Shown: positions 3,616 to 64,000, counted from the first letter of the stretch. The stretch: 64,000 nt of DNA from Calonectris borealis (GCF_964195595.1 NW_027441456.1:808127-872126), one strand, 5' to 3'. Translations and numbers: made by a program. Notes: generated by a model not told the origin, from the letters alone.

Positions 3616-3660
3616 AACCATTTAGGTTGGAAGGGACTTCTGGAGATCATCTAGTCCAAA
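3616..3660 (-). mobile_element. Short CR1 3'-terminal fragment inside each macrosatellite unit (also at ~9541-9585 and ~15471-15515)
   Basis: 'aggttggaagggacttctggagatcatctagtccaaaccc' is the reverse complement of the canonical CR1 3' end (...ggactagatgatctccagaagtcccttccaacct). Confidence 0.6.
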
Positions 3661-16427: not shown

Positions 16428-16454
16428 ATCGGCATAATTCTCAGAAAACACCAA

Positions 16455-16640
16455 CCCCTAACTCTCCACAAGAGAGTGAGGGCTGTTACCCTTACTAAAA
16501 GCACAGCTCAAGCCAGTCCATACTCACACAGTCACCTTCCCTCAGCCCATACAAAGCTCTACAGGCCACGTGCTTCTCCAAAAGCAACGTGCTCCGGCAT
16601 CAGGTTTTCTCATCGCGTCCTGTCGCCGTATCACCTTCAA
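16455..16640. repeat. Unit-homologous segment (unit ~2905-3090) leading into the edge CpG island
   Basis: 'cccctaactctccacaagagagtgagggctgttaccc...' matches unit 2905 onward. ORF 16476.. matches ORFs 2932/8857/14785 (MRAVTLTKSTAQASPYSH...). Confidence 0.85.
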
Positions 16641-42300: not shown

Positions 42301-42530
42301 AGCCACCCCAAGGGTGTAGGACCCAGGGCTGGGGAAAGAGGTGCCTGGAGGGGCACCCCTTTCACAAACTCCTCTTGCTCCCTGGGATGAGCAGGGACCC
42401 AGCGCTGCAGGCTCATCTTGATGGCAGCCTCTCCCCATCCCTGCAGGCAGCAGCTGCCCAGCCCCAGCCCCATTGCACGCTGGCGGTGGGGCAACCACGG
42501 AAATGCCCTGAGGAGCTCCGGGTCCCTCAC

Positions 42531-42701
42531 CGGATGCTCTCCAGCTGCCAGGTAGAATTCTTCAGCCCCTTGCAGAGCAGCCGCACCCCAGGATCTCCCA
42601 GGTCCTTAGTACTGATGTCCAGCTGCTGCAGGCTCTGGTTGGTGCCGAGTGCGTCGGCCAGGTCCCCGCAGCTGGCACTGGTGATCTGGCAGCACTGCAG
42701 T
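42531..42701 (-). CDS. NLR LRR exon g: LQCCQITSASCGDLADALGTNQSLQQLDISTKDLGDPGVRLLCKGLKNSTWQLESIR
   Basis: Acceptor 'cctgcag', donor 'gtgaggg'. 171 bp. Confidence 0.8.
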
Positions 42702-42939
42702 CTGCAGGGAAGATGCCCCAGAGAGGAGCTGGGGGTCGTCAGCCCCTGTGCGGGATGCAGCCACCCAGCAGCCCCTCCCCAGCCAACACCCTGCCCACAC
42801 CCGGGACACACCCACCCCTCAGCCAATGAGGGGACAGCAAGGGAGACACTGCCTCCTCCCAGCCCTGCCAACGGCCTCCCCACAGCCAATCCCCTCCCAG
42901 AAGGGACCAAACGGGTCTTCTCAGAGGCGCAAAGGAGAA

Positions 42940-43060
42940 GGACGAGAGCAAATGAGGGAGGGAGGGAGGGAGGAAGGAAGGAAGGAAAAAAGCAAGGAAA
43001 AGAGGAAGACAGGAAAAAAGGAAGGGAGGAGGGAAGGAAGATCCTAGCGCGGTCCAGGAC
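42940..43060. repeat. Purine-rich (GGAA/GGGA)n microsatellite in an LRR intron
   Basis: 'gagggagggagggagggaggaaggaaggaaggaaaaaagcaaggaaaag...'. Confidence 0.9.
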
Positions 43061-43222
43061 TCTCTATCCGCAGGCTCCTCTTGCTCTCTGGGCAGGCAGG
43101 GAGGGAGCATGGGATGGTCAGGGACCCACACTCTCCCTGTCTTTGCAGGCAGCAGCTGCCCAGCCCCAGTCCCATCAAGTGCTGCCCAGGAGAAATGCCC
43201 TGAGCAGCCCTGGGTCCCTCAC

Positions 43223-43393
43223 CGCAGTTTCTCCAGCCGGCAGGCAGGATGCTTCAGCCCCTCGCACAGCAGCCTCATCCCAGCATCTCCCAGGTTGTTT
43301 CCACCAAGATGCAGCTCCCGCAGGCTCTGGTTGGTGCTGAGCACTGCAGCCAGGTCCCCACAGCAGGCGCTGGTGAGCTTGGACCACCACAAC
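43223..43393 (-). CDS. NLR LRR exon f: [57 protein letters not shown]
   Basis: Acceptor 'cctgcag', donor 'gtgaggg'. 171 bp. Confidence 0.8.
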
Positions 43394-43849
43394 CTGCAGG
43401 CACAGCAAATCAGAAATACAACGGATCTTGTCACAGCTGCGATGACAGATGCACACAGACGCACAGGCAGATGCACACACCTCACCAGGCCATTGCCCGA
43501 AAGCAATGGTCACAATCCCAAATCGCACATCCCTTGGCCAGTGAGGGGCTAGCGCTGGAGACAACGCCTGCTCCCAGCCCAGCCCAAGAATATCCACATA
43601 CATTAGGAAGTGCATATTGGGCACGGTGATGGGGAGAGCTCCCACACCCTTCCTGGGGAACCAGCATGGCTGGGCACCTCTCTGAAGTGCTGTTACACAG
43701 ATGCATGCAGGACAGGGAACAAACAAGAGGAACTGGAGGTCTGCGTGCAGTCGCAGGGCTTTAGTAGCTCACTGGAATCACAGAGTCATACCGGGATAGC
43801 TCAGCAGCTAGTGCTGCAATGAGTGGATACAGGCTTTTTTGGAAGGTCA

Positions 43850-45700
43850 TGCTGGGAAAGCAAGATGGGAGACTTGCCCTTTACATGAGAGAGTAGCAGA
43901 TCATAGCCCTGGACTTCAGGAGCACTGACCCTGGCCTGTTGAGAGGTCTGCAAGGAAGAATCCCATGACAGACTTTCCTCCAGAGAAGAGGGGTCAAGGC
44001 GAGCTGGTTGACAATCAAGGATCACCTCCTCCAAGCTCAACAACCATCCATCAAACATGAAAAGGAAGCATACAGGAGGTGGAAGCACAGGAAAGTGGCT
44101 TGGAAAGAATGTAGAGATGCTGTCCAAGTGTGCAGGGATCAGGTTAGGAAAGCCAAAGCCCAACTGGAGTTGAATCTGGTGAGGGATGTGAAGGGCAACA
44201 GGAAAGGCTTCTACAGGTACACGCGCAGCAGAATGAACAATACAGAAGATGTGGGCCTGCTGCTGAACGGGAGTAGGGACCTGGTCACAAAGGACATGCA
44301 GAAGGCTAAAGTACTGAATGCCTTCTTCACCTCAGTCTTCACTGGTAAGACTGGCCTTCAGCAATTCCAGGTCCCTGAGACCAATGGGAGAGTCCAGGGC
44401 AAGGTGGACTTATCCTTGGTGCAGAGAACCAGCATGGGGAATGTTTAAGCAAACGGGACATAGGTAAGTTCATGGACCTGATGGGATGCACCCACAAGGG
44501 CTGAGGGAGCTGACTGGTGTCACTGCAAGGCCACTTTTGATAATCTCTGAAAGGTCATGACGATCAGGGCAGGTTCCTGAAGTCTGGAAGAACACAAATT
44601 TTGCCCTATTTTCAAGACAGACAAGAAAGAGGATCCAGGGAACTACAGGCTGGTCAGTCACCTCCATCCTAGGAAAGGTGATGGAGCAAATAATCCCGGG
44701 AACCACTTCTGAATACAGGAAGGACACGAAGGTGACTGGGAGTACTCTGCATGGATTTGCAAAGGGCAAATCATGTCTGACCAACCTGATAGCTGTCTTT
44801 GGTAAAATGAGTGGCTTGGTGCATGAGGAGAGAGCCTTGGATGTCATTTATCTCAACTTCAGAAGGGATTTTGACCCTGTCTTCTGCAACACCCACTTAG
44901 ACAAACTGATGACTATTGGCTAGAAAAGCAGACAGTGAGATGGATTTAAAACCGGCTGAATGGCTCGACTCAAGGATTGTGGCACTGAGTCTACCTGGAG
45001 GCCAGTCACCAGTGGTGTACCCCAGAGGTCAACACTGGGGCTAATACTGTTGAACATCTTCATTAGACACCGGGACTGAGTGCACCCTCAGCAAGTTTGC
45101 AGATGATACAAAAGTAGAGGAGAGGCTGACAGACCAGGTGAGCATGCAACCATTCAGAGGGATCTGGACAGGCTGGAGAAATGGGCTGACAGGAACCTCA
45201 TGAAGTCCCACAAGGGGAAGTGCAAAGTCTTTCATATTGGGATGAGTAACTCCATACACCAGTAGAGGCTTACTGGCTGGAAAGCAGCTTGGCAGAAAAG
45301 GACCTGCGGGTCCTGGTGGACACCAAGTTGACTATGAGCCAGCAATGTGTCCTTGCCGCAACAAAGGCTGAGGGTATCCCGGGCTGCATTAGGAAGAGTG
45401 TTGCCAGCAGGTGGAGGGAGGTGATCCTTCCCCTCTACTCAGCACTGGAGTGAGGCTCCACCTGGAGTGCTGTGCCCAGTTCTGGGCTCCCCAGTACAAG
45501 GGAGACATGGCCGTACTGGAGAGAGACCAACAAAAGGCCAACGAAGGATGATGAAGGGACTGGAGCACCTCACATACGAGGAAAGGCTGAGAAGGCTGGC
45601 ACTGTTTAGCCTGGAGAAGAGAAGGCTCAGGCTCATCAGGCTCTCTCAGGACCAGAAGGAGCCTGGAGAGCAGATTTGGTCAGGGACTCTGGGAAGTAAA
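43850..45700 (+). mobile_element. CR1 LINE fragment (ORF2 middle/RT region, 3' end missing) within the NLR gene intron between LRR exons e and f
   Basis: Plus-strand ORFs 44008..44448, 44678..44923 (TGSTLHGFAKGKSCLTNLIAVFGKMSGLVHEERALDVIYLNF...) and 45467..45703 (...[25 protein letters not shown]) are CR1 ORF2-like. Confidence 0.8.
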
Positions 45701-47148
45701 TGAAGAGCCCCTTGGGAAGACAGTGCAGGGTGACCACCGCTTGGCATGTGGAGATGGAAGAGGGGAATTGTGGCAGAGAGGGCTGGCACTGTGCACCAGC
45801 GGGTCACTCCACAGCCACATTCACTTTCAGCAGCTCACACAGCCAAGTTCTGCGGCACCAGGAGGAGAAACCCACACCAGCTCCGCCTGGCATCCCGGCA
45901 CCCAGCAGCAGCCCCTGGCAAGCCAGCTGCAGTGATATGGCAGTGAGGCTTCTTGGTGCTAAGCATGGCCAAGGAATGGCTGCCAAGTGATGCGCTCCTG
46001 TCTGCGTGAGTGTCTCGCAGAGAATTGCACTGTCTTTCTGCACGTGTGCCCCCAGCCTTGGCTCCCAGGTACAGCTGCACTGATGGGGTCCGTGCTGCCC
46101 GCAGCCGAGCCTATGGGGAACAGAGATGGGAAGATGGACCTCCTGGTTCAGAGAACCCTTTCTTCTGGGTTGGGTTTTGAAACTTCCTTGGGCAAAGGGA
46201 TCCCAAGAGAGTGTCCTCATTCAGTCCCCTCAGTGGGGACCGTGACAGAGAAGCATGGCTCAGAGTGCGCAGTCCAGCAAGAAGCAATGCTTGGAAACAC
46301 TGAGACGTGTGTTTGGAGATGGCTAACTGTAGCCATGCCCGGGTAGCCAGGGGTCACACAGATCAGCTGACAGAGGACTGTGGCAGTAACGGAAGGAAAT
46401 GGCAGGGGCACTTTCTCTTTGAGCGTTTCCATGAGTCTTTTCACTCCTGTCAGTGGCATGTTTCTGAGATACACCTCTGGATTGGTCCAGTCGTTGTGCC
46501 CCGTTTCACCCTGCGGAGCAGCCTCAGAGGGTGAGAACTGGGTTCCTTTGCGATGAGCTGGCCCAAGAAGTTGTGCTCCGGGAGCACAGCTAATGTGCTC
46601 CAGCTGTTTGTAGGCTTTCGGTTCATAGCACAAGACCAAAGGTAAGCCAAAAGGAAAGCAACCCAAAATGTCCCAAGTGTGAACATCAGGCCCTCTACAT
46701 CAGCAGTTTTGTTCCATGTACCCAATGTCCTGGCTCTTCACTGCTGGCAAATTTGGACATGGCCTTTCAGCAGACCCATTTCCTCAATAATTCCTGCTGG
46801 TTCTTATCCCCAACCATCCTTCCCACTGCTTTGGGCCCATCATGGTGGAGACAAGGAATGGGAATTTCTGGCCATTTTGTTTTGTCCAGTCATCTCAGTG
46901 TGTATGCTAGTGGCCACACTGCTGTAAGGGGGGAAGTAGGGGTGGATGCTGCTGATTAAAAAACTCAAGTGCCATGGGCTATGCCCCACACAGCCTTGAT
47001 ATCCACATGCAGCTTTCAGAGATGACACAAGGCCTGTACTTGAGCCCTGAAATTTGGGATGGCAGCGGGGGGTCAAGAAGCCTGTGGGAAAAAGGCCTGA
47101 TGGGAGAGGGAGTGTTAACAGCACACGAAAATCCTTAGGGAGCCTCAC

Positions 47149-47319
47149 CGCAGTTTCTCCAGCCGGCAGGAGGGATGCTTTAGGCCCTCGCACAGCAGGC
47201 GCACCCCCGCGTCTCCAACGTCATTATCACCCAGGTCCAGCTCCCGCAGACTCGGGCTGGTGCTGAGCAGAGTGGCCAGGTCCCCGCAGCCGGTGCTGGT
47301 GATTTGGCAGTGCTGCAGC
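47149..47319 (-). CDS. NLR LRR exon e: [57 protein letters not shown]
   Basis: Acceptor 'cctgcag', donor 'gtgaggc'. 171 bp. Confidence 0.8.
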
Positions 47320-48096
47320 CTGCAGGGGAGGCACACGAAGAGGAGCTGTGAGGTTGTCACAGCCACCAAGAGACAGACGCACTCACCCACCCACCAGCCT
47401 TCCCAGTTTAATCCCACTAGTCCCCGACCCGGAGCTTCCCCAGTCACTGGGCACTTCCCAAGGCTACAGACAACAAACGGGAATTTCTGGGCACTTTGTT
47501 TTGTTCACAAAGTCATCTCAGCATGCACGCTAGTCATCCCACCACCATAGTGGTAATTGTGCGGCTGTGTTCCCGTGGCTTGGCAGAGTGCTCTAGAGCC
47601 ACAGGAGATGCCCCACGTGGCTCAAACATCCAGGCAGAGCTCGCAGAGACAACACAGGGCCTGCACAAGAGCCCCAACATTCGGCATGGCAGCCAGGGTG
47701 GTGATGTGAGTAAAAGCAAGGACTGGGAGGGAGCTGAGTGGCGCAGCCCAGGATGACTTGGGCCTGGCAGAAGAGGGACTTCCCACAAGGATGTGTCCTC
47801 TGCCCTCCTCCGGTGCCCACTCACGTGGGACTGAACACCCTGGACTCAGCAGACGCCGGGGCTGGGGAAACAGGTGCCTGGAGGTGCACCCCTTTCACGC
47901 ACTCCTCGTGCTCTCCAGGCAGGCAGGCAGGGAGCACAGGATGAGCAGGGACCCAGCGCTGCAGGCTCACCTCGACGGCAGCCTCTTCCCATCCCTGCAG
48001 GCAGCAGCTGCCCAGCCCCAGTCCCAGCCCAGACCCCATCAAGGGCTGCCCACAAGGCAGCCAGGGAAATGCCCCAAGGGGCCCTGGATCCTTCAC

Positions 48097-48267
48097 CCCA
48101 AGATCTCCAGCCGGCAGGTGGGTTGCTTCAGGCCCTCGAACAGCAGCTGCACCCCAGCGTCTCCAAAATCATTATCACCCAGGTCCAGCTCCCGCAAACT
48201 CAGGCTGATGCCGAGCGCAGTGGCCAGGTCCCCGCAGCCAGTGCTGGTCAGCTGGCAATATCGCAAC
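48097..48267 (-). CDS. NLR LRR exon d: [57 protein letters not shown]
   Basis: Acceptor 'cctgcag', donor 'gtgaagg'. 171 bp. Confidence 0.8.
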
Positions 48268-48589
48268 CTGCAGGGGAGACACACCAAAAGGAGCCACAAG
48301 ACCATCACAGCCACCAGGACAGATGTAACCACCCAGCAGCCTCTCAACAGGCCTGTGCCCACATGCCACGGCCAGAAACCCTGCCCACACTCATGGGAGC
48401 CAGTGCTTTACCAAGAGCTTGGTGCTGGAGTGACCGCTTGCTCCAAGCCTGGCTCTCGGCCTCCTCTGAGCCCATTTCTTCCGAGAAGGGAACAAATGGC
48501 TCTTCTCAGTGGTGCGTAATGGAAAGATAAGAGGTAACAGGCACGACTTCCAACAGAGGAAACTAATTAGACTTTAGATCTCTCCATCC

Positions 48590-48790
48590 CTGTTCCCCCA
48601 TGAGTGTGGTCACAGTGGAACAGGACCCCACAGAGGCTGTGGGATCCTCATCCTTTAAAACATTCCTAACCCAGTTGGACAAGACCCTGAACAACAGAAC
48701 CTACGGCAGCCCAGCTTTGAACACGAAGAAGTGCTGGACGACTTCTGGAGGTCCCCTCCTACATAAACTACTTTATGATTCTGGATCTGG
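48590..48790 (+). mobile_element. CR1-like 3'-terminal fragment (second copy at ~53935-54115) embedded in a duplicated intronic segment
   Basis: '...ggacaagaccctgaacaacagaacctacggcagcccagctttgaac...tggaggtcccctcctacataaactactttatgattctggatc' resembles a CR1-subfamily 3' end. Both copies are nearly identical. Confidence 0.5.
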
Positions 48791-49479
48791 GCAAGACCCT
48801 GCTCATTAACTGCCCTTCTGCAAATGGCTGGAGCTGTGGAGACTCTGGAAAACAGGCCTATTCCTAGAATCCTTCAGACCCTGCCTGCACTCAGGACATA
48901 CATGTAGGGATGCACTCCTTCAGCCGAAAATGCAGCAACACTAACTCCCCCTTTGCCAACACAATCCTTGCTGCTGGGCTTGCTCATTCACGGCATTCAT
49001 CCACTCCTCTCTCCAGGACATCCTTCTGCTGCCCAGCTGCTCTCTTCCCGCTTGGAGGGGAGAGCAGGCAAGATCACTTTAATTGTCCAGCCCACCTGCC
49101 TGTGCTTCAGGATCCATTTCCTCCTGCCTTGCCTTCACATATCCTTATGCATCCCTTTAAGCTTCCATGGAATCACTCTCCTGCCCTAGGCCAACAGTGG
49201 GAAGCACCAGCTTAGCACATTTCCTTCCACCTGTTCAATGATCTTGAAAAAGTGAATACTGCTACTCTCCTCCCTTCACAAGTTCTGCCCATTTGTAAAA
49301 GCCCCTCTCTGCTGAGAAGCCTTAGGGCTTCCTCACTTTCTCCTCTGGGAGAAGCCTTTGCCCCTCAATATCAGGTGATGGGCACCAGGGAATCCTGCAA
49401 GTCATCTCAGCTGGCACCGGCCACCTCCATGTGGGATCGGCCAAGCCCCTCCAAGTAGTGCATGGCAGATGTTTTTCTT

Positions 49480-50345
49480 CTCCTAGAGGATCTCATTGAG
49501 CAACTTCTAAACCAGCTTCTGTGTAGAGATGCCTTTTTCCTCAGTGCAAGCAGACATCAAGAACTGTATGAAGTTTAGCAAAGACAAATGCAAGGTCCTG
49601 TACCTGGGACAACATAACCAAAGAGCCCAGTACAGGCAAGCATTGGTGTGACTGGGGAGCAGCCTTGCTGAAAGGGACCTGGGGTCCTGGTAGACAATAA
49701 GCTGAATGTGAGTCAGCAGTACACTGCTGCAGCAATGAAGGCAAATCAGATCCCGGCCTGCAACCGCAGGGGCATGGCTAGGAGAGAGAGAGATGTGATC
49801 ATCCCACTCTCCTTCATGCTTATCAGGCCACACCTGGAGTACTGTGTCCAGTTCTGGTCCCTACAATTCAAGAAAGACGTGGACAGACTGGAGAGAGTCC
49901 AAAGGAGTGCCACAGAGATGATCATGAGATCATGAGAACCTGCCCTATGAGGAAAGACTGAAGGAGTTAGGTCTCTTCTGCCTGGAGAAGAGAAAGCTCA
50001 GGGAGGAACTCATGACAGTATTCCAGAACTTAAAGGGTAGCTACAAAGAGGATGGAGGCGCTCTCTTCACAAGGAGCCACATGGAGAAGACAAGGGGCAA
50101 TGGGTACAAGTTGCACTGGGAGAGGTTTCATCTCAACATAAGAAAGAAATATTTCACAGTAAGAACAATCATTCACTGGAACAACCTTCCCAGGTAGAGT
50201 CCCCATCGCTGGAGGTTTTCAAGATGTGATTGGACAAGTTGCTAGATAATCTCCTCTAGGTTCCCTTTCCCACAAACAGTTGGACCAGATGATCTTTCGA
50301 GGTCCCTTCCAGTCTGGGCTATTCTATGATTCTATGATCATCCAT
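49480..50345 (+). mobile_element. CR1 LINE fragment with intact 3' end
   Basis: ORFs 49708..49935 (...PHLEYCVQFWSLQFKKDVDRLERVQRSATEMI) and 50012..50197 (...YKLHWERFHLNIRKKYFTVRTIIHWNNLPR). 3' end 'ccagatgatctttcgaggtcccttccagtctgggctattctatgattctatgatc'. Confidence 0.9.
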
Positions 50346-51160
50346 TCTGATTCATGCAAGAGATCATTTGAGAAGAGGAGGTGTCCATCGTAGTATTTGA
50401 GGCTGTGTTCTCCTTGGTAGTTTCGTGCTACTGCTCCCATTTCAGTCACAAAGATGCCAGGCTGAATCCCATTGCCCAAAGAGAGGGGTCCAGGGCTGAC
50501 TGAGAGATGGGGTTGACTGGATCGTGATCTGGGGCTTGCAAACATGACACAGAGCCAACAAACCTCAATGCCAGGAAGGCTGTATGAGAAAAGCAACAGC
50601 TTAGAAAGGTAGCTGAGTGACCCAACTCCTGTCAACTCCTGACCATGGTCACAGCGTGCTAACACAGACGTCGTGCACTGGAGGAATTCAGGGACTGACT
50701 CTCCAGCTCAGTTCCACTGGGTGTGTCCCAGAGGAGATCCCTGTGTTTCAGTTGGCCACCCTGAGGCCTGTCCTTTGCAGGAGGAGAGACAGGGTCGCCC
50801 TGGGAGGCGTGCAGCTCTCTGGGGTGCTGCAGAGTCCTACGCTGGAGCAATGAGTTGGTCATGGCAGAAGATCGCCTTTCCGCAAGGATGTGTCCTCTGC
50901 CCTCCCCCGGTGCCCGCTCACCTGGGACTGAACACCCCGGACACAGCAGACACCAGGGCTGGGGAAACAGGTGCCTGGAGGGGCACCCCTCTACACAATC
51001 TTGCTCTCCGGGCAGGCAGGGAGGGAGCACGGGATGAGCAGGGACCCAGCACTGCAGGCTCACTTCCATGGCAGCCTCTCCCCATCCCTGCAGGCAGCAG
51101 CTGCCCAGCTCCATCAAGTGTTGCCCGGGGAAATGCCCCAAGGAGCCCCAGGTCCCTCAC

Positions 51161-51331
51161 CCCACATTCTCCAGCCGGCAGGTGGGATGCTTCAGCCCCT
51201 CGCACAGCAGCCGCACTCCAGCGTCTCCCAGGTCATTAGAACCAACATCCAGCTCCCGCAGGCTCTGGTTGGTGCTGAGCGCAGTGGCCAGGTCCCCACA
51301 GCCGGCACTGGTGAGCCGGCACCACCACAGC
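51161..51331 (-). CDS. NLR LRR exon c: [57 protein letters not shown]
   Basis: Acceptor 'ccacag', donor 'gtgaggg'. 171 bp. Confidence 0.8.
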
Positions 51332-52802
51332 CTGTGGAGAGACACACCAAAGAGCCAGGGGTCATGGCAGCCACTGGGACCAACGCACCCGACCCTGCCC
51401 TCCCCACCCACCCATCCCAGCCGCTCCCTCCAGTCCTACCCACTAGGTGCTGGGCCAGTCGGGGTGGTGGTGATGGAGTGAGGCCCAATCCCAGCTGGCC
51501 ACGGGGCTGCCCTGGCCCGACGCCAGGCAATGCTCCCCATGGTCGCTGGGCCTCTGGCTGCCCCCAGCCCCACGCTCGCCATGCGCCAGGTCCCACAGAA
51601 ACCCCACTGGCAGAGGGACAGCAGGGGGAGAACAGAGGAGGAGACGGATGGAGGTCAGAGGAGAGCCCTGCCCCATGGACTGCTGTGCTGGGGCACAGAC
51701 CTGCAGCCAAATGATGACGTGCTATGTGACAGTGTGATGAAAGACTGAAGGGCTCAGCAGCCCTGGGAGAGTGCTCAGAGCTCTCAGGCATGGGATCAGG
51801 AGGGCAAGAGGGGAAGTGTGGCAGAAGTTAATGGACAGAAGGGACCAGGAGGACACTACAGACACCCAAAAGGCCACAGCAGGATGAGTGATAGACCAGA
51901 TCTTCTCCAAGACCCTGCAGCTTAACAGCCCCAACCTGCAGCTGGAGTACTGTACTGGAGGAGGGGCAGGAGTCTGCATCCATCAGGGTGGAAAGTGGAG
52001 AATCCTAGGATGGTGAAGGCTGGAAGCTTTTAACTTCTGACGCTATGAGGAAGGCTCCTGCTTCACCCCAAGATTTGCAATGCCAGAACAGATTCAGTGT
52101 TGTAGTAGCTGGCAAGGGGCTGGGACCTCCCTTCAATGAAGTACTCAAGGCAGCTAAACTTCAGCCGTGCAACAGAAACAGGAAGAGTGGTGAGTATATA
52201 GCAGCAGATGACTCGCGGCTGTGGGGGATGGATGCTGCCACTGGTCGACCCGACACCGTGGTCTTGGTTGCTGACAAGGGGCTGTTAGTGCACAGCGTGC
52301 TAACACAGACGTCGTGCACTGGAGGAATTCAGGGACTGACTCTCCAGCTCAGTTCCACTGGGTGTGTCCCAGAGGAGATCCCTGTGTTTCAGTTGGCCAC
52401 CCTGAGGCCTGTCCTTTGCAGGAGGAGAGACACGCTCCCCCTGGGAGGCGTGCAGCTCTCTGGGGTGCTGCAGAGTCCTACGCTGGAGCAATGAGTTGAT
52501 CATGGCAGAAGATCGCCTTTCCGCAAGGATGTTGTCCTCTGCCCTCCCCCGGTGCCCGCTCATGTGGGACTGAACACCCCGGACACAGCAGACACCAGGG
52601 CTGGGGAAACAGGTGCCTGGAGGGGCACCCCTCTACACAATCTTGCTCTCCGGGCAGGCAGGGAGGGAGCACGGGATGAGCAGGGACCCAGCACTGCAGG
52701 CTCACTTCCATGGCAGCCTCTCCCCATCCCTGCAGGCAGCAGCTGCCCAGCTCCATCAAGTGTTGCCCGGGGAAATGCCCCAAGGAGCCCCAGGTCCCTC
52801 AC

Positions 52803-52973
52803 CGCAGTTTCTCCAGCCGGCAGGTGGGATGCTTCAGCCCCTCGCACAGCAGCCGCACTCCAGCGTCTCCCAGCTTGTTATCACCGATGTCGAGGTCCCT
52901 CAGTCTCTGGTTGGTGCTGAGCACTGCACCCAGGTCCTCACAGCCAGCGCTGGTTAATTCACACGCCCCCAGC
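52803..52973 (-). CDS. NLR LRR exon b: ...[54 protein letters not shown]
   Basis: Acceptor 'cctgcag', donor 'gtgaggg'. 171 bp, same phase. Confidence 0.8.
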
Positions 52974-54729
52974 CTGCAGGGAATGCACATGGGGAAGACT
53001 CTCAGCATTGCCAGCCCAGCCTGCCACCTTTCCTCCCCTGGCAGCGAGGGCCAAGAAGGGGCCCCCAGGCAGGGAGCCCTGCAGGCAGGGTGCTGGGAAG
53101 AGCTGGGCGAGCGGCCATCAGCTCAGCCCAGGCAGGGTTGCCCCCCTGCCTAGAGCCAGATGCAACACCCATCTCCTCTGACCCTCCAGCTCCCACAGAG
53201 AGACTCTTGCTGGCACAGCAGCCAGACTGTGCTGGCTTCTGGCCCCTGACAGCTGGCTGTGGGCCACCTCATGAGCCCTCATCCATTCGAACCCTCCCCT
53301 CCTCATCTGAGACTTTCCAGTGCTTCCTGCAGCTGGTCAGGAACAGGCTAACACACGGCAAGAAACCCTACCCCTTGGCAGGGCCCTTCCTAGCACAAGC
53401 CCTCCTCCAAACTTTGCTCTGAGTACTGAAATGCCACCCCAATCTACAGCTAACTGAGCCCCACGTATTTAAAGAGTGGTTTTGTTCCTCCCACCTGACA
53501 GGGAGAGTGTTCCCGTCAGAAAGTGGGAGGCTATGGGGAAGGGAAAAAAACCCGCCACGCAGCTCAATGGTGAAATCAAGAGGAAGGAGCCTTCACAATT
53601 CAACAGGAAAGCAGAATGTTTTGATAAATGCATGAAAATCAAAAGAAATAATGGTCGCCCCAATGCAAGAATGCACCATTGGGAACTGGTGCAAGCCCAG
53701 CAGAGGAGCACAAAAATGGCTAGGGGGCTGCGGCAACATGAGATATGAGGAGAGGCCGAGAGCACAGGGTTTGTTGAATCAAGGGAAGAGAAGTCCAAGG
53801 GTGCAATCTTATTGCTGTTACCAGATACTTCCTGGGACAGTGAGTCCTAGGTGCACAGAGGTGCACAGGAAACTAGACTTCAGATCTCTCTGTTCCCTGT
53901 TCCCCGTCCCCCCACGATCAGTGTGGTCAAACAGGGGAACAGGACCCCAGAGAGGCTGTGGGATCCTCATCCTTTAAAACATTCCTAACCCAGTTGGACA
54001 AGACCCTGAACAACAGAACCTACGGCAGCCCAGCTTTGAACATGAAGAAGTGCTGGACGACTTCTGGAGGTCCCCTCCTACATAAACTACTTTATGATTC
54101 TGGATCTGGGCAAGACCCTGCTCATTAACTGCCCTTCTGCAAATGGCTGGAGCTGTGGAGAGTCTGGAAAACAGGCCTATTCCTAGAATCCTTCAGACCC
54201 TGCCTGCACTCAGGACATACATGTAGGGATGCACTCCTTCAGCCGAAAATGCAGCAACACTAACTCCCCCTTTGCCAACACAATCCCTGCTGCTGGGCTT
54301 GCTCATTCATGGCATTCATCCACTCCTCTCTCCAGGACATCCTTCTGCTGCCCAGCTGCTCTCTTCCCACTTGGAGGGGAGAGCAGGCAAGATCACTTTA
54401 ATTGCCCAGCCCACCTGCCTGTGCTTCAGGATCCATTTCCTCCCACATTAGCTCTATGCGACCACCCCAGCTTCAGCCATGTTGCTTGCATGTCCCAGTA
54501 CAACGGTGGGGACCTCAAGCTTAGCAGCACTTTCACCCACCCCACGATCTTGAAAGAGCTGTCTCCCTTTTCAGGAATTCATCCCCTCTCTCAGCTTGCC
54601 TCTCTGATGAGTGCCATTTGGGAAACACCACTTCCATCTCCACGTACCAGTTGGCAGCAGCAGCTGCCCAGCCCCAGCCCCATCGAGTGCTGCCCAGGGA
54701 AACACCCCGAGGAGCTCCAGGTCTCTCAC

Positions 54730-54900
54730 CGCAGTCTCTCCAGCAGGCAGGCTGGATGCTTCAGCCCCTCGCACAGCAGCCGCACCCCAGCGTCTCCCAC
54801 CTGCCTGTCTTGCACGTCCAGCTCCCGCAGACTCTGGCTGGTGCTGAGTGCGGCGGCCAGGTCCCTGCAGCCGCGGCTGGTGAGCTGGCACTGCCACAGG
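54730..54900 (-). CDS. NLR LRR exon a (171 bp): (L)[56 protein letters not shown]
   Basis: Acceptor 'ctctctgcag', donor 'ggtgagagac'. Consensus of NLRP LRR exons (C..L...C..L..LS.N.SL.ELDLS.N.LGD.G...LC..L..P.C.L..L.L). Confidence 0.8.
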
Positions 54901-57900
54901 CTGCAGAGAGATGCACCAAAGAGGGGCTGGGAGTTATCAGAGCCACCGGGACAGATGCAGCCCCCCACCACGCTCTCAGCAGCCTCAGTCTTGCCTATGG
55001 GCTCCGGGGAGGAGGGTAGCTCCAAGGAGCCACGGGGATCAGCAGAACCTGATCCTGGCCCGTGTGTGGCCCCAGCGCGCTATGCCTTGTTTGGGGTAGG
55101 AGTATCCCTCTCCGCCTTCCCCACCCTGGGGAGGGGTTCCTCGGGCTCTGGTTTTCCCCACCCCAAGCTGATGTTCCCAGGGGACCTGGGCCAGGTTGGA
55201 CAACCCCTCTCCCTCAACGCCCCGTAGCAGGGCCTTCAGATACCTTCCTGAGGCTCAAGGGCTGTGAACACAAGTTCTATCAGGTGGAGAAGGACTCGAC
55301 TCCTCCTCTCCAGTCTCTGGTCACATGCAGGAAGCACAAGGGCATTACACACAGGGATTTGGGATTATCTCTCCAGCAGGATTCAGGTGGGCAGAATGAT
55401 CTGCCTGCTTGAGAGAAAGGCTGGCATTTTGGTTGGTTTGTTTCTAAGAAACAGAACAGTTTTCTCACCTGAGTGTCTTCAATTTGCTCCTTGGATTCCC
55501 TACAGCTTGATGGAGCAGGCACAGAGATGACGACTGTGACTGCTCTGTCTGGCATGGCTGCCTGGAGAAGTGAAGAGGAGATGCTCTGCATGAGAGGTGG
55601 CAAGCTGGATTCGTTACTAGTTCACAAGCATCAAAACAGCATGTCAGGGAGCATGACCTCCCACTCAAAACAGGATGGTGTGTATTCCCAGTTCATCGCA
55701 AATCATTTGAAAACCAGATGAGGCTCACACCATGCAATGCTGGGTCAGACATTCAAGACATTGAGAGTAATCACCAATGCTGTGTGTTGTACACAGCTAC
55801 CTTAGCGTGACCGTTCACTCAGCTTTTGGCGTAACATGTGGCTCACACCAAGACCCAATGTGTGCTGGGAGCAGCACCATTAGGTCAAAGCGAGAGCAGC
55901 ATGTTCGCAGAACACGCTGGACATGCATTGTGATGGAGAAGCTAGGTTAGGTAACTATTTCTCTCACAGACACGCGAGTTGGAGAATTTGCAAGATAGGA
56001 GAACATGAGAGGTATTTGAGAAGGTGTAGTGAATCCACAAATTAATGAATTAGAGAATTCACGTGATAGACTAATCTGTACAAAGGGGATTGAGCCTTTG
56101 CTTGATTTATTTTTAACCAGATGAGCTCACGAAATAAATTTTAATTTATAAAGTGTAAATTGTCCTGTAAATTTGAAAGATCCAAATGAACCATGACACT
56201 TACCCATGCAAAGACTTTTGCTATCCACATACAAAGACTATGCTTGATCTGGTCAGGTTTGTAGGAGGGCTTCCCAGGGAAGGCAAGCTGGTGGCTTTCA
56301 TTCTCATCAACAAACCCTTGAGGAGCAGGGCACTGGGCTGCCTGGACACTGGACAGAGCTCTCCAGAAATGTCTCAGCCTCTAAACAGATCCAAAGGTTC
56401 CTCTGGAATTCCAGGAACAGAGATGCTTGCGCGAACTGAAACTGCCCCATGGCAAGAGCGAGCAACCCAGGTCCCTATGCAGGGGATGGGAATGGGAGCA
56501 CATCCACAGCCTTCCCTTGCGCTGCTAATCGTTTCCTTCATAAGATGCAGTTCCTTTCTGAGCATTAATTACCACTGTTGGGAAAAGGGCAACTGCGCTC
56601 CCCACTGAGCACACAGCTCCCACAGGGAAAAACCACACGGACCGAGTCCAGCCGGGTAATGACAGCTGGTGCCATCAGCAGTAGCCCGGAGCCCTGGTAT
56701 GAGGGAAAGAAGCTACCTCAGGGAGTTGGCTATGGGATACAGCCCTTGAGGGGCTGTGTCTGAACAGGTCTGAGAACACTCGGAGCCACAGCTCACCCAG
56801 AGTCCAGGTGGACATGCTGTTTGGGGCTACCCGTTCACCAGCCCCCACGCCTGTTCACTGCAATTTGGACCAGGACAATAAACCTGCTTGCGTCTGACTT
56901 GCTTGTGCTCTCAAGGCATTCCTCACCACTCTTTCCCTGCTGTTGGGGAGAGAACTCTGGGAGCTCTCTTCCCGACACTGATGGGGAAACAGGTGCAGGG
57001 TAGTGCCCAATACTACCATCCCTTCCCAAACTCCTTGCCGGTCCCACTGCTGACCATGGAAGTGCAGCTACAGTGCCGTGGAAGCGGCAGCTGCTGCTGC
57101 TTTTCCAGTTTAACAAATACCTTCCAAGGGAAGAAGATTGTGCTTTGACAGTTGCCCGATGCCACAAGAAAGCCTCGCCACAATGAGAAGGTTGCACCCC
57201 GTAGGGGAGAGGGGATACAGACAAAAACTGCGCTTTTACAGGGGTTATGGTTTTTCCGGTACAGAACTCCTGATAAGCCCTCTGCAGCATGAGCCATCTC
57301 TTGCCCTGTCTCAGGGGTCCAGGCTCATTTTGTGCTGTGCTGAGCATCTCCAGCTCACTCAGGGCACTTGCCCTGGCCATATTGCTGAGAGGCGAACAGA
57401 TCCCTCCTAGCTGGGTACCAGAGCCCTCTGCCTGATCAAGCACAGCACTCTCGTGAGCAGAGTCTCACAAGAGACTCTGCCAGCCTGCAGATAAGAGTCA
57501 AACAGGTCAAGGGAGAAGCAACAGCCCATGGCCATTTAGCGCACGTGCCCCGGGCAAGTGCAGGATTGCAGCTTAACCCCTTCCAAACTCACACAGGATG
57601 GCCCAAGCTTTTTGCTCTCTGCTTCTTTGCTAGGACTCTCTCTGAATGCAAGTCAAACCTTCCAGCCTTTCAGACCAAGGACTACAGGGAAAGGGGTAGT
57701 GAAAAAAAACAGGTTTGCATTTTCAGGAAAAGCAAATGAAAATGCCTTTAAAAATACCTTTTGCAGTGTATCCCCCTACTAGGGCAACGCAGTGGAGATA
57801 AGCGCTTGTATTTCCCGCAGAGAAACACCACTCTGGCTTGGTACTTTCCTGGACCTAGGAGAAGAGGCTTTGTAGACACAGTGGATAGCTAACATAGCTC

Positions 57901-58181: not shown

Positions 58182-59898
58182 AGACATGATCGCTCTGGGG
58201 GTCCTGGAATGACCTTGTTTTCATGGTCTTCCCATGTAAGGAAGCACCATTCAAGATGAAGGGAGTCCAGTCCTTTCCAGGGTTTGACACAGAATGAGAG
58301 AACCCTTTGATCAAATTGGGTCAGGCTGATGTCTCTCAGAACGATCCCCGTAAAATGCTCCAATGCATTGCTCACAAACGTTTCTTCATGACTCTCAAAC
58401 AAACAGTGAAATATATTCAAGTCAAAAACCACCTTATCAGAACTTGAAGCTACTCCTTGGCTTATCTGAGTCCACCTCAGCAAGTCTTCCTCAATTTGAG
58501 GTGAAGTTTCACATCCAGTTATTTCTTTCAGCTTCTTCTTTAGTTCATTGTTTAACAGGCCAAACAGGAATCGCACCACTAATATAAAACGTGTTTTACA
58601 TTCATTGTAGTTTTCAAGCACTACATTTATTCTTTTCTCAGGAGTCTCCGAGTGTCCCCTTGTGTCTTCACTGTCCCCCAGTGCATAGAACAATGCTGCA
58701 AAAAACTCTTGAAAGCTCAGATGAACGAAGCTGTAGACATTCACGCACTCCCTACCTTTTCTTAGAACACTCTCACTCAGAAAAAGGGAGCATAAAACTT
58801 GGTGATTTAAGCCATGTTCCTTGATCTCCTTTTCCTCAAACAGGATCTCCTGCCTCCAGATTCCATCAGCAGCCAGGCAGCAAAGTCTGCCCAGGAACTT
58901 CTTCAGATCCTGCTTCAGATCTTCTTTCCCACACTTGAGTAATGTGGAAAGGTAGGACACATACAGCTCTGTGATTGTTGTAGAAGGCTGTGAAAGATCA
59001 TTCCCTTCATCAAGTTCTTGTTCAAGGGCAGTGCAGACGGTCCAACATATGATGGGTACAAGGCACATGGTAAAAAGAGTGTCATTTCTTTTGACAAAGC
59101 TAATGGCTTTCCTTGCTTTGTCTTCATCCATGAAGAACTTGCGGAAATATTCCTCCCTCTCAGCTTCTGAAAAACCCAGTATCTCTGCAAAACACTCTGT
59201 CTTTAAACACTGCCCCAGACTTTGAAGAGCCGTTGGTCTTGTGGTGATGAGTAAGGAGGACTCCGAAAGGAGAGTCTTCTCCAATAAACTGCTCAGAATA
59301 ATTTCTACGGGCTTCTTTTCCTCAGCACTTGAGCATAATTTACATTTTGGTTGATCCAAGGAAAACCTCAGTTCATCAAAGCCATCAATGATGAACAGAA
59401 GCTTCTGGGGACTAGCCAGGATCTCGTCAAGTGGTGCCCATCGATCAGGACAGCAATCTGACATCAAGTCACCCAGACTCAGCAAGTCCTCTTGCTGAGA
59501 AAGGTTGATCTCTCTACAGCTTATGTAGAAGGCATAGTCAAACTGTGCGTAAAGAGCTCCTTTTGCCCAGTCTAACATGATCTTTCTTGATGTCATTGTC
59601 TTTCCAATACCTGCAGCTCCCACCAGCACAATGATCTGTGGTATTTGCCCTTTTTTATCAGGCTGAAAAAGAGTTTCCACAGTGATGGTACGTTTAGCAC
59701 CTTCTCCTCTGACCTCCTCGTGTCTCTGCCTGAGACGCAGGACCTCATGTTCTTGTTCAGTTGTGTTGTGAGTCTTTGTAACCATCATCAGCTTTGCATA
59801 TCTGCTGCTTAGAGTCACATTCTCACCCAGGCGAGTGTTCACCTCTTTAAATGTACAGAACTCTCTTGCTACATAGTCTCTGTACTTCTGCCTGTAAT
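58182..59898 (-). CDS. NLRP3-like NACHT exon (1717 bp, phase 1 in, phase 2 out). Contains Walker A 'GAAGIGKT', Walker B 'LLFIIDGFDEL', then NACHT-associated/winged-helix region.
   Basis: ORF 58178..59926 (582 aa). Acceptor 'ggtttag' at 59899-59905, donor 'gtaagtattg' at 58181. Close similarity to human NLRP3 (DYRKKYRKYV..., GAAGIGKTILARKMMLDWA, ILFLMDGFDEL, LLITTRPVAL, EILGFSEAKRKEYF, LFTMCFIPLVCWIVCT, SFIHMTFQEFFAA...). Confidence 0.9.
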
Positions 59899-60823
59899 CT
59901 AAACCAATGAGAAACATAAGCACCACCCCCTAATAAAGGCAAACTTCTCATTAGCCCCTCATCATTAAAATTATTCCCACAACACATTCCCAGTACACTG
60001 CAGTTGTTTTACATGTCTGTTTTAGAAGACTTCCAAAGACCTTTACAACGGCTTATGCTGAGCAACCATCTGAGCAGGCCTCTCTACCTTTTATTTAGGG
60101 AAGGTGGGGGGAACCAGCTCCTCTTCACACAGCTCCATTAAGTACCACCAAGTAGGGCAGAAGGAACCCAAGGGGGGAAGAACACCTTCATGGGAAAGAC
60201 TGGTGAGCATTTACTTGGAAAACAGTTGCTAAGCATACTCCTCTTTCTGTAAAGCAGAAGAGGACTTCCACCTTAATTTCTCAAATGGAAGACACATGGT
60301 TCCTCTGGCCCAAATCAGACTTGGAGGGCAGAGGTCCAGTCAACCTCCACTGCAATAAGCAGGTGATACTGTCGGTTGATTAGAGATCACCCATTGTATC
60401 ACCTCTCTTCCTTCAAACTCTGCCAGAAAAGGAGAATCTGAATTGTCCCTTGTATTCCCTAGGTGCGTAGATGGCTCTGCACCACTATCTCCTGGCTGAG
60501 ATAGCTGCACGTAGCATAGGCACTTCTGCTGAAATGGCACATACCGTCAGCTAATACATACCGTTCCAAGACTGGGAGCTGAAACTGCAAAATGAACATG
60601 AGTATTAGCACAGTGGTGTGGCAAAGTCCCACAGACAATGTTCAGAGGCAGTGGATCCCTCTGGTGCCTGCCTAAAATCCCAGAGGATAAAGCAGATTTC
60701 TGCTACTGATATTGCCACACAAGCACTGTGAACACTCCCTGCCCTCTGCAAATCAACCTGCCTTTACATTGGGAAGAAACCCCTCTCCTCCCAGGGAACC
60801 CCAGGTCCCACATGGGGACATTA

Positions 60824-61275
60824 GAATCATAGAATTGTTAAGGTTGGAAAAGACCTCTAAGATCATCGAGTCCAACCGTCAACCCAACACCACCACGCCC
60901 ACTACACCATGTCCCTAAGCGCCTCATCTACACATCTTTTAAATACTTCCAGGGATGGTGACTCCACCACGTCCCTGGGCAGCCTGTTCCAAGGCCTGAC
61001 CACTCTTTCAGTAAAGAAATATCTCCTGATGTCCAATCTAAACCTCCCTTGGCACAACTTGAGGCCATTTCCTCTCATCCTATCGCTGGTTACTTGGGAG
61101 AAGAGACCAACACCCACCTCGCTACAACCTCCTTTCAGGTAGTTGTAGAGCACGATGAGGTCTCCCCTCAGCCTCCTCTTCTCCAGGCTAAACAACCCCA
61201 GTTCCCTCAGCCGCTCCCCATCAGACTTGTGCTCCAGACCCTTCACCAGCTTCGTTGCCCTTCTTCTTTCCCAGA
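60824..61275 (-). mobile_element. CR1 3' fragment, upstream of the NLR NACHT exon
   Basis: Minus-strand ORF 60902..61312 '...[47 protein letters not shown]'. 3' end 'tagaatcatagaattgttaaggttggaaaagacc'. Near-identical to the CR1 at 28571. Confidence 0.9.
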
Positions 61276-61399
61276 GCAGAAGAAATTGCCTGACCTGTGG
61301 GCCACAACCCACCCCACCTGATCAAGAGGGCAGGGCACGTAGCACCCCAGGAAAAAGGGAGGAGTCATGGCAGCAGTCCCCGAAACCGGCATGTAGGGC

Positions 61400-62470
61400 A
61401 TTGGCAGGAGGGTGTCCTTGCAGTTCCTCTCCCCAGCAAGGAGAGCACTGGGCTCCTCTCCTTCTCCCCTTTCCCCGGGACTTGAAATCTGCCCTCACCC
61501 CTCCGAGGAGGAGCTTGCTTTGCACTTTTTCCAGGGAGCAGGCAGAAAAGGAAAGAAGAGGAGTAGTGACCCCCTGCCTCCTCACCTTCCTCCTCCTCCT
61601 GCCCCAGCTGAGCTGCCGTGCCTCCGGCCGACCCCTGCCAGCACCGCATGGCCACCTCCACCCACAGCAACCTCTGGCCCCAGCGCGCGCACGCGCGCTC
61701 AGCAGCCGCGACTGCGGCATCGGTTGCCTCAAACCAACCTCTGGGCAGGCTCTGCGCGCCTCCGTAACCCCTACGTCACAATCCAAACGTGCCCAGGGCG
61801 AGATCCCCCCGCGCTTCCGAGAGGGCCTCGCGGCGGCTCCTCTCTCGCGCCACCGGGCGCTGCTACGGTCGCCCCGGGAACAGGGGCCGGGGTCCTGCCG
61901 AAACGCCCTCCCGAGCCCGCGGCGCCCCCCGAGCCGCTGCCGCCGCCGCTGCCGCGGGCCCGGCGCCGAGGGGCGCGGCCGGGCCGAGCGCGGAGCGGAC
62001 CCGGCCGGGCGGAGCTCAGCCCGCCGCTGCCGCGCCCCCGGCCCCGGGGCTGGCCCGGCCCCGCCCCACCCCGGCCCCGCCCCCCGGCCCCGCGGCCCCG
62101 GCCCCGGTGCGGCTGCGGCAGCCGGGAGCGGCCCCGCCGGAGGGCCCGGCCCCGGGGGAGGGGCGGGCTCCGGTGTGCGACGGGCACGGGCAGCCCCGGG
62201 GGAGGAGGGGGCTCCGGTATGAAACTGCGGTGCGAGCTCCGGCGTGCGGGGGGCGCACGCTTGGCTGGGGGGCGGGGCGGGGGCTCCAGTCCGCAGGTGC
62301 CTGTATTGGGCGGAATCAGCAGGGTTTTGGGAGCGGGGACCTGCAGGGATGACGCTTTGGAGGCGGCGGCGGGCTGCCCCGTGCCGGGCCCGGCCGGCTC
62401 CTGCACGGCTGGCACAGAGCGGTGCCGTGGCTGCGATGGACGGTCCCACGCTCCACTCTGGACGTTGGAG
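61400..62470. promoter_or_regulatory. CpG island (>75% GC) ~1.5 kb upstream of the NLR NACHT exon. Candidate promoter/5' exon region of the NLR gene or of a divergent gene.
   Basis: Dense CpG (gcgcgcacgcgcgctc, gccccggccccggggctggcccggccccgcccc...). All long ORFs here (up to 392 aa, both strands) are Pro/Arg/Gly/Ala low-complexity artefacts. Confidence 0.6.
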
Positions 62471-62606
62471 CTGTTCTAGGGTTTTCCTACAAGAAGACAA
62501 GACCGTCTGAGAGGCACCTGCCCGCCCCCTTCGCCTGCTGCTGGCCCACCACGTACCAGGGCAGGAGTGACCTCAGAAGCACTTACCCATCCACGGCCTT
62601 AGAGCC

Positions 62607-63410
62607 GTAGAATCATGGAATGATTTGGGTTGGAAGGGGTCTTCCAAGATCATCCAGTTACAACACCCTGCCATGGGCAGGGACATCTTCCACTAGATGA
62701 GGTTGCTCAAAGCCCCCGACCAACCTGACCTTGAACACTTCCAGGGGTGGGACATCCACAGCTTCTCTGGGCAACCTGTGCCAGTGTCTCACCACCCTCA
62801 GAGTAAAAAATGTCTTCCTCATATCTAATCTAAATCTACCCTCTTTCAGTTTAAAACTGTTATCCCTTGTCCTGTCACTACAGGCCTTGGTAAAAAGTCT
62901 CTCTCCATCTTTCTTATACGCCTCCTTTATATATGGAAAGACCACAATAAAGTGTCCCTGAAGCCTTCTCTTCTCCAGGCTGAACACCCCCAACTCTCTC
63001 AGCCTTTCTTCACAGGAGAGGTGTAACAGCCCTCAGGATCATTTTCACAGCCTTCACCTGGACTTGCTCTGACAGGTCCATGTCTTTCCTGTGCTGGGGA
63101 CCCCAGAGCTGGATGCAGTGCTCCAGGTGGGTTCTCATGAGAGCGGAGTAGAGGGGCAGAATCATCTCCCTCGACGTGCTGGCCACGCTTCTTTTGATGC
63201 AGCCCAGGATATGACTGGCTTTCTGGGCTGTGAGCGCACATTGCTGGCTCCTGTCCAATTTGTCACCTACCGGTACCCCCAAGTCCTTCTCGGCAGGGCT
63301 GCTCTCAATCCCTTCATCCCCCAGTCTGTGCTGGTACTGGGGATTGCCCCAACCCGGGTGCAGGACCTTGCACTTGGCCTTGTTGCACTTCTTTCTTGCC
63401 TGCCATGTAC
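62607..63410 (-). mobile_element. CR1 fragment flanked by a 27-bp direct repeat
   Basis: Minus-strand ORFs 62658..62993 (...RFRLDMRKTFFTLRVVRHWHRLPREAVDVPPLEVFKVRL) and 63010..63282 (...[23 protein letters not shown]). 'gggcaggagtgacctcagaagcac' occurs at 62556-62580 and 63414-63437. Confidence 0.85.
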
Positions 63411-64000
63411 TGGGGCAGGAGTGACCTCAGAAGCACAAGCAAAGCCCCAAACTTCTTTCTGGTGGATCAGGTCCTCGAGGAGAAGTGACCTCACTCACAC
63501 GGACTGTTGTGCACCTTGAGGTGCTGGTCTGTGGCAATCCCAGTAAGGAAGGCGCTCAGACTCCTTAAGGTGTCATTCACTGCTGTTCATTAGCGCTGGT
63601 GCTGTCCCTCAAGTGGGGTTCGTTACCCTGTGTGCAATAAGCCAATCTCACACACAGAGCCGAGATATTTATTTCTCTCCTGTCTGCTAGCACCTCTCAG
63701 TTAACACACGGTAAGCATTTTATACATTCCCAGCGACAGTTATCAGTCCTTTCACATCTACACTTCGTCATCCTTGCTTCTATTGGTTCTTGTAATGCCT
63801 TGTCTGCACTTAAAGTCACAGTGTCCTTTCTTTTTACTGCGCATGTTCAGTGGGGAAGGGGCTTTGTTGGGTAGGGGGCTTTCCTGCCCGTGGGTGGGGT
63901 TTTTACTATGCTAACTAGAATAGGGCAGAATAGGTCAGACTACTCGAGAGGAATTTGCTGGGAAACAATGGGGTTAATTGGCAGCTCTTCTCAAGGATGT

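Follow-up and report, generated by a model that had tools for sequence, protein, structure and literature searches.

A new analysis of a 64,000-nucleotide (nt) stretch of the Calonectris borealis genome (GCF_964195595.1 NW_027441456.1:808127-872126), hereafter the window, indicates that the NLRP3-like gene on its minus strand has very probably lost the capacity to encode a PYD, although the exon that once encoded this N-terminal effector domain still stands, as an eroded relic, in its ancestral place. The gene is the single NLRP gene that tblastn detects in the window, and 4.1 kb are visible upstream of its NACHT exon. The original prediction, made from the sequence of the window, had taken the PYD exon to be missing and suggested either that it lies further upstream, outside the window or unrecognised within 63.4-64 kb, or that the effector domain had been lost or replaced, with the CpG island serving as a novel promoter or 5' exon. 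A PYD-derived exon with a matching phase-1 donor is in fact present at 61853-61586, inside a CpG island; it had gone unrecognised within the window and is to be sought neither beyond it nor in 63.4-64 kb. The PYD was lost because its exon decayed where it stands, accompanied by extreme AT-to-GC enrichment, and not through exon deletion or domain replacement.

The relatives of the gene provide the framework for this reading. A protein search with the NACHT exon returned 1131 homologous proteins, the best of which, a Podargus strigoides 'NLRP12-like' protein (P0001; GCA_028020825.1, CM051657.1), is 79% identical in amino acids and 87% in nucleotides over the NACHT exon and has no PYD. The next homologues (P0002-P0008, from waders, storks, a frigatebird and Podargus) show 66-69% amino-acid identity, and most of them bear a PYD; NLRP3-named proteins of ratites and other birds are 52-54% identical to this gene. 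Four loci were used for comparison: the P0001 locus (L001), that of the PYD-bearing Podargus paralogue P0006 (L002), and the PYD-bearing loci of Himantopus (L003) and Nycticryphes (L004). L001 is collinear with the window from the CpG island of the latter through the gene to ACADM, and is therefore the orthologue, with the PYD-bearing group as the nearest paralogues. The latter three loci share with the C. borealis gene the same PYD exon, phase-1 intron, 1.7-kb NACHT exon, phase-2 intron and 171-nt LRR exons, and a collinear intron 1, but differ in that their own PYD exon is intact, with an ATG, a GC content of 0.44-0.47 and a Pfam PYRIN match of 2.3e-18. This paralogue exon comprises 282 nt plus one base, ends at the donor G/GTGAGGAA (here and below, a slash marks a splice junction) and lies 1.2-2.8 kb upstream of the NACHT exon.

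The homology of the relic to this exon is evident in the DNA. In a blastn search with word size 9 and dust off, 61767-61263 aligns with the 3' two-thirds of the PYD exon and the start of intron 1 in three paralogue loci, with E-values of 8e-16, 1e-20 and 3e-8. Two DNA profiles searched with nhmmer agree: the one built from the PYD exon alone matches 61824-61599 (E 3.1e-13), and the one built from the first 450 nt of the paralogue intron 1 matches 61585-61259 (E 4.3e-40), from profile position 1, and resumes at 60821-60744. The donor, at 61586/61585, is the ancestral one, in phase 1 and with the conserved sequence AAG/GTGAGG. Specifically, the last base of the relic, a G at 61586, is the first position of a codon that the AT of the NACHT exon completes as Asp, so that the junction reads ...EEEE-D-YRQKY. 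An upstream PYD exon with a phase-1 donor thus exists in structure, but not in function.

The functional loss is visible in the lesions of the relic. Multiple alignments show that its start codon has changed from ATG to GTG at 61853-61851 and that it carries an in-frame TGA at 61778-61776, and it has a 15-nt deletion relative to the paralogue PYD exons. Its conceptual translation, VARERSRREALSEARGDLALGTFGL before the stop and RRGYGGAQSLPRGWFEATDAAVAAAERACARWGQRLLWVEVAMRCWQGSAGGTAAQLGQEEEE after it, is rich in Ala, Arg and Gly, agrees with the Himantopus PYD at 32 of 88 residues and yields no Pfam PYRIN match, against 2.3e-18 for the Himantopus control. Neither of the other two frames of the relic can be joined in frame to the NACHT exon. 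No frameshift is claimed from the apparent 1-nt indels of the relic, as the same aligner yields compensating +/-1 gaps in the open NACHT exon.

The protein-level searches found no PYD. With tblastn, full-length PYD-bearing homologues found no PYD match in the whole window at E<=10, the search being silent on the relic because the latter is too diverged at the protein level. A custom PYD protein hidden Markov model (HMM), derived from the N-termini of 73 avian and reptile NLRPs and scoring 1.3e-39 on its positive control, returned nothing significant in the window, its best match (independent E-value 3.5) lying at 61775-61635, inside the relic. A Pfam search of all six frames of 59899-64000 recovered no family on either strand and no other effector domain, blastn at default settings (word 11, dust on) missed the relic against both L001 and L002, and 63437-64000 is unique, lacking a PYD, a Pfam domain and any homology to the related loci. 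The suspected loss of the effector domain, for which tblastn of PYD-bearing homologues and six-frame Pfam served as checks, is therefore borne out, by the absent ATG, the TGA and the lack of an HMM signal, and its suspected replacement is not, the six-frame Pfam search being empty.

Base composition indicates how the exon decayed. The GC content of the relic is 0.71, versus 0.44-0.47 in the paralogue PYD exons, and 71 of the 89 substitutions that separate it from Himantopus run from AT to GC, with only 4 in the opposite direction. The bias declines with distance from the CpG island (Table 1), and the relic is the most diverged segment of the locus, the reverse of what is seen in a constrained coding exon. 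Such a steep AT-to-GC gradient is the expected product of GC-biased gene conversion at a CpG-island recombination hotspot in birds, which makes this process a candidate cause of the enrichment.

Downstream of the relic, the gene is well preserved. The first two bases of the NACHT exon, AT, finish a codon, which makes the preceding intron phase 1, and the translation starts YRQKYRDYVAREF; its acceptor AG at 59900-59899 aligns base for base with the acceptors of the four related loci, in agreement with the predicted phase-1 entry. Walker A (GAAGIGKT) and Walker B (LLFIIDGFDE) are intact, and Pfam recognises NACHT (2.1e-47, residues 88-258 of the exon translation) together with the accessory modules FISNA (1.5e-7, residues 5-78), NOD2_WH (5e-17) and NLRC4_HD2 (9.8e-26), as well as LRR_6 (1.6e-37) over the seven downstream LRR exons. 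The linker, LRR and terminal exons all have cag/.../gtgag borders. The gene thereby shows the NLRP subfamily features of a NACHT with Walker A and B, a FISNA-WH-HD2 arrangement and LRRs on 171-nt exons, and the N-terminal PYD (PF02758) gave no match to Pfam or the custom HMM in any frame of the window. In human NLRP3, the PYD is encoded by a 5' exon that joins in phase 1 to a large FISNA-NACHT exon starting ...DYRKKYRKY, followed by 171-nt LRR exons; its PYD is intact and signals through ASC, and a separate short linker exon is present.

Table 1 Features of the NLRP3-like locus in the window, in the direction of the gene, with substitution counts and identity relative to Himantopus
Feature	Position	Strand	AT-to-GC:GC-to-AT	Identity to Himantopus	Details
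CR1b	62596..63394	-			sense on minus strand; 5'-truncated 3' fragment, 799 nt
CpG island	61601..62500	.			~0.9 kb; relic at 3' edge
Retained acceptor-like AG	61863..61864	-			ccgtag/CAGCGCC; aligns with paralogue tttttag/CATAGAGTGATG just 5' of ATG
PYD-exon relic	61586..61853	-	71:4	66%	268 nt vs 283 nt in paralogues; 3' edge of CpG island
Out-of-frame ATG, upstream of ATG 61649	61718..61720	-			context accgATGc, weak
Only in-frame ATG of relic	61647..61649	-			context ggccATGc; leader MRCWQGSAGGTAAQLGQEEEE-D, then YRQKY...; putative start
Intron 1, 5' part	61268..61585	-	42:13	77.5%	donor GTGAGG, GT at 61585-61584
CR1a	60822..61267	-			sense on minus strand; 5'-truncated 3' fragment, 446 nt
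Intron 1, 3' part	59901..60821	-	83:60	77%	~70-77% identity to paralogue intron 1; no coding signal
Acceptor AG of NACHT exon	59899..59900	-			tttag/ after pyrimidine-rich tract ttatgtttctcattggtttag
NACHT exon	58182..59898	-	about 1:1	81-82%	1717 nt, 571 full codons, open; enters in phase 1, exits in phase 2 via CT/GTAAGT
Linker exon	~55551-55447	-			open
LRR exons, seven of 171 nt	~54.90, 52.97, 51.33, 48.27, 47.32, 43.40, 42.70 kb	-			all open
Terminal exon	~41.55 kb	-			open; rest of gene spans 41470..55551

Intron 1 ties the relic to the NACHT exon. The original prediction had found no PYD-like open reading frame (ORF) in the 0.9 kb next to the NACHT exon, and rightly so: 59899-60821 is the 3' part of intron 1, homologous to the paralogue intron 1 and collinear with intron 1 of both the PYD-bearing paralogues and the Podargus orthologue. 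A breakpoint of duplication within the intron, considered because homology to L002 seemed to end at 60515, was rejected, as the whole intron is collinear. The CR1 copies predicted at 60.8-61.3 and 62.6-63.4 kb are likewise real, at 60822-61267 (CR1a) and 62596-63394 (CR1b). Homology to the paralogues breaks off and restarts exactly at the ends of CR1a, whose site is empty in L001-L004; since homology resumes beyond it, CR1a is a later insertion into intron 1.

The CpG island, predicted to span 1.1 kb at 61.4-62.5 kb, is confirmed as an island but is shorter, about 0.9 kb, the CpG observed/expected ratio of 61401-61600 being only 0.12. By the criteria of Gardiner-Garden and Frommer (>=200 bp, GC >=0.5, CpG observed/expected >=0.6), 61601-62600 is CpG-island sequence, with a GC content of 0.70-0.91 and observed/expected ratios of 0.78-1.08 over 61601-62400, 0.63 and 0.61, respectively, over 62401-62600, and ratios of 0.0-0.4 in the flanks. 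Four GGGGCGGGG boxes lie within it, at 62059-62083 and 62269-62282, as is to be expected in sequence this rich in GC, and the block 62333-62150 is kept in the Podargus orthologue (73% identity, E 2e-29). In the PYD-bearing paralogues, a CpG-rich block precedes the PYD exon by about 1 kb without containing it; together with the acceptor that they carry just 5' of the PYD-exon ATG, this implies a 5' untranslated region (UTR) exon there. The island of the window is a candidate promoter of the NLRP gene, whether new or ancestral.

In the favoured model, the gene is a member of an old avian paralogue lineage whose PYD exon remains at its ancestral spot, upstream of an intron 1 that CR1 insertion has lengthened to its present 1.7 kb. 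Selection on the PYD may have relaxed because most birds lack its partner ASC (Billman, Hancks & Miao 2024, Genome Biol Evol, PMC11258412). Erosion in place has produced the GTG start, the TGA and the loss of 15 nt, and substitutions of which about 80% run from AT to GC have merged the exon into the adjacent CpG island. If transcription starts from that island, splicing through the surviving phase-1 donor could still link the relic to the NACHT exon, with the relic contributing a 5'UTR and, in a weak step of the model, at most a 21-residue leader from the ATG at 61649. Translation from Met37 instead would truncate FISNA, which begins at residue 5. The predicted product is a PYD-less FISNA-NACHT-WH-HD2-LRR protein, and the chances that such a protein is expressed and functional appear about evenly balanced.

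Several observations weigh against this model. The in-frame ATG at 61649 is absent from Podargus, and an out-of-frame ATG at 61720 precedes it in the relic, in a frame that meets the donor in phase 0 and runs 10 codons into the NACHT exon before a stop, so that it would form an overlapping upstream ORF if transcribed. GC-rich stretches moreover invite assembly error, which could account for a lone lesion like the TGA. The island core gave only weak GC-rich matches to the upstream regions and CpG-rich blocks of the paralogues in lax blastn, and none in nhmmer. In the Podargus orthologue, the ancestral PYD-exon donor is lost, the NACHT exon has a 1-nt deletion 12 nt in and a further 4-nt deletion, and a 4.7-kb deletion has removed the exon end, the linker exon and the first LRR exon; given this damage, the whole paralogue may be on its way out. 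Finally, the ratio of nonsynonymous to synonymous substitution rates (dN/dS) between two PYD-bearing paralogues is 0.35, below the 0.4-0.55 of this gene.

These points raise the question whether the whole gene is a non-functional unprocessed pseudogene, whose intact NACHT and LRR exons merely reflect recent inactivation. This is rather unlikely, but it has substantive points in its favor: Podargus L001, with several disabling lesions in and after the NACHT exon, is the sole identifiable orthologue, no orthologue being annotated in other birds among the 1131 matches; the ancestral start codon is lost and the only in-frame ATG is not conserved; and dN/dS is raised, with 0.545 in the comparison with the Podargus orthologue and about 0.45 in those with the paralogues. 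On the other hand, some 3 kb of coding sequence in at least nine exons are open, with splice sites and Walker A and B intact, and the window branch, estimated from pairwise values (dN ~0.035, dS ~0.07-0.08), has an omega of ~0.4-0.55, below 1. A random substitution in the NACHT exon has a chance of about 5% of creating a stop, and the open frame of this exon is therefore unlikely under neutrality: since the Podargus split, ~6 stops would be expected in this exon alone, and none is seen.

The Podargus locus itself is probably a pseudogene whose annotated model has been patched around its lesions. In the 910-residue P0001 (L001 10001-17164), a cryptic acceptor 7 nt into the NACHT exon dodges the 1-nt deletion, a cryptic donor is placed before the 4-nt deletion, the 4.7-kb deletion is skipped, and non-homologous GC-rich sequence is translated as a 126-residue N-terminus, which should not be taken as a real domain. 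The counterpart of the relic is barely alignable and has a stop in the ancestral frame, and the 12.4 kb upstream of the NACHT exon contain no PYD by tblastn, protein HMM or DNA profile. Lesions common to both species are not claimed, given that GGTGGCGCG at the former ATG is aligned in only two of three alignments and the alignment leaves the 15-nt deletion ambiguous. At L001 9400-10000, upstream of the Podargus relic, lies a C-rich low-complexity repeat, CCATGGGTGTGCATCCCCCCCCACACCCC, with a GC content of 0.71 and a CpG observed/expected ratio of ~0, unlike the CpG island at the corresponding position of the window.

A further possibility concerns the island, which could be that of a neighbour, divergent or unannotated, or an orphan island at a recombination hotspot, leaving the NLRP gene silent or driven from elsewhere. 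The lack of homology with the CpG-rich blocks of the paralogues would suit this explanation, and GC boxes are no guide at such a GC content. We nonetheless consider it improbable: neither strand of 59.9-64 kb holds an ORF with a Pfam domain, the Podargus orthologue has no called gene within 10 kb on its upstream side, and the paralogues, too, have a CpG-rich block 1 kb 5' of the PYD exon and an implied 5'UTR exon.

It is very unlikely that the relic still encodes a functional, diverged N-terminal module, with the GTG and TGA being assembly errors or bypassed by an upstream coding exon. In favour of this, the relic differs in length by a net -15 nt, which is divisible by three, and 63 open codons of the ancestral frame lead up to the donor; the Podargus gene model treats the GC-rich counterpart as coding; and a disordered region replaces the PYD in songbirds and falcons (Billman et al., PMC11258412). 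However, the relic is less conserved than the adjacent intron (66% versus 77.5% identity), 80% of its changes are AT-to-GC whatever the codon position, and the ancestral frame contains the TGA, with the other two frames closed to a junction with the NACHT exon. The Podargus model is a patch around frameshifts, and the Podargus counterpart of the relic, besides being barely alignable and interrupted by a stop, has lost the donor. That an intact PYD exon lies beyond 64000 and that 61.6-61.9 kb is only a duplicated remnant is hardly credible. In its favour, only 4.1 kb are visible 5' of the NACHT exon, PYD-to-NACHT introns of the paralogues measuring 1.2-2.8 kb; against it, the relic has the ancestral position and donor and a fully collinear intron 1, and no PYD occurs in the 12.4 kb upstream of the NACHT exon of the Podargus orthologue.

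PYD-less avian NLRP3-type genes are already known; what is new here is the visible DNA-level route to PYD loss. ASC is absent from most birds, and in the syntenic NLRP3 of songbirds and falcons, which adjoins CEND1, the PYD is replaced by a disordered N-terminus (PMC11258412). Like the C. borealis gene, these genes keep NACHT, HD, HD2 and LRRs without a recognisable death-fold N-terminus and are often annotated 'NLRP12-like', but the C. borealis gene has ACADM as its downstream neighbour, with 4 kb visible on its upstream side, and they present a 'novel domain' at the protein level, whereas here the origin can be seen in the DNA, as an eroded exon in place. It is possible, though doubtful, that the PYD was stripped from bird NLRP3-type sensors in this way more generally: after the loss of ASC, an exon beside a promoter-island hotspot would have been overwritten by GC-biased substitution and left untranslatable or disordered, with selection maintaining the NACHT-LRR part and signalling proceeding without a death fold. 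If true, the same origin would apply to the 'novel disordered N-terminal domain' described in the NLRP3 of songbirds and falcons.

The findings also resolve an annotation puzzle, in that no exon is missing and no sequence beyond the window is needed, and the relic bears on the question posed in Billman et al. 2024 of how NLRP3-like proteins of birds can signal when ASC and, in some lineages, the PYD are absent. They furthermore call for caution: tblastn, Pfam, HMM and default blastn searches overlook GC-eroded exons, and spurious GC-rich N-termini may be introduced by annotation pipelines, as the Podargus model illustrates. The biological weight of the case is modest, because it concerns a lineage-restricted extra paralogue whose Podargus orthologue is probably already a pseudogene, unless expression and function are shown.

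Some minor observations concern the repeats and neighbours of the locus. Both CR1 copies finish in ATTCTATG-type octamers, CR1a in ATTCTATGATTCTAATG at 60835-60819 and CR1b in ATTCCATGATTCTACGG near 62620-62600; tandem 3' octamers of the ATTCTRTG type are a CR1 hallmark (PMC2612034, PMC8665684). Each of the two copies has many matches, 65-95% identical, in the window and in loci from three further bird species, and Pfam finds nothing in either, the fragments being too short to reach the reverse-transcriptase domain. CR1b presumably carries remains of the C-terminus of ORF2, to judge from peptide similarity. It is exactly bracketed by a 42-nt direct repeat (62541-62582 and 63395-63436, 86% identical), which could be an unusually long target-site duplication or a pre-existing short duplication into which the element inserted. 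CR1a is 95% identical over 442 nt to a copy in the same orientation at 28571-29012, near ACADM, other CR1 copies reaching 65-80%; this likeness points to a young CR1 subfamily or to a local duplication or conversion event.

At the PYD-NACHT junction of a Ciconia maguari isoform (P0005), residues 95-108 form an extra 14-residue 'linker', GEETGALGPGTSAE, which opens with the translation (G-E-E-T-G) of the conserved intron start G/GTGAGGAAACAGGAG. The likeliest origin of these residues is read-through as far as an alternative donor further downstream, not a separate linker exon.

Downstream of the NLRP gene follow ACADM and then a SNORD45-bearing repeat. The exons of ACADM, which encodes medium-chain acyl-CoA dehydrogenase, at ~34400-27050 on the minus strand with a 5' region at 33-35 kb, are syntenic in position with a gene of the Podargus locus called as an acyl-CoA dehydrogenase. 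The human SNORD45 copies presumably lie in introns of RABGGTB, which adjoins ACADM. Tandem Repeats Finder reported nothing at scores >=200, as a 5.9-kb unit is beyond its longest period, 500; the period is seen in base composition, direct repeats and Rfam matches. The tandem repeat occupies 1-16731, with a unit of ~5.93 kb in at least 2.7 copies that are 97-100% identical to one another, a near-identical multi-kb array that could reflect recent duplication or an assembly artefact. Every unit bears a SNORD45 box C/D snoRNA on the minus strand, the copies lying at 635-719, 6563-6647, 12490-12574 and 15999-16083, scoring 58-62 bits against a gathering threshold of 42 in Rfam.

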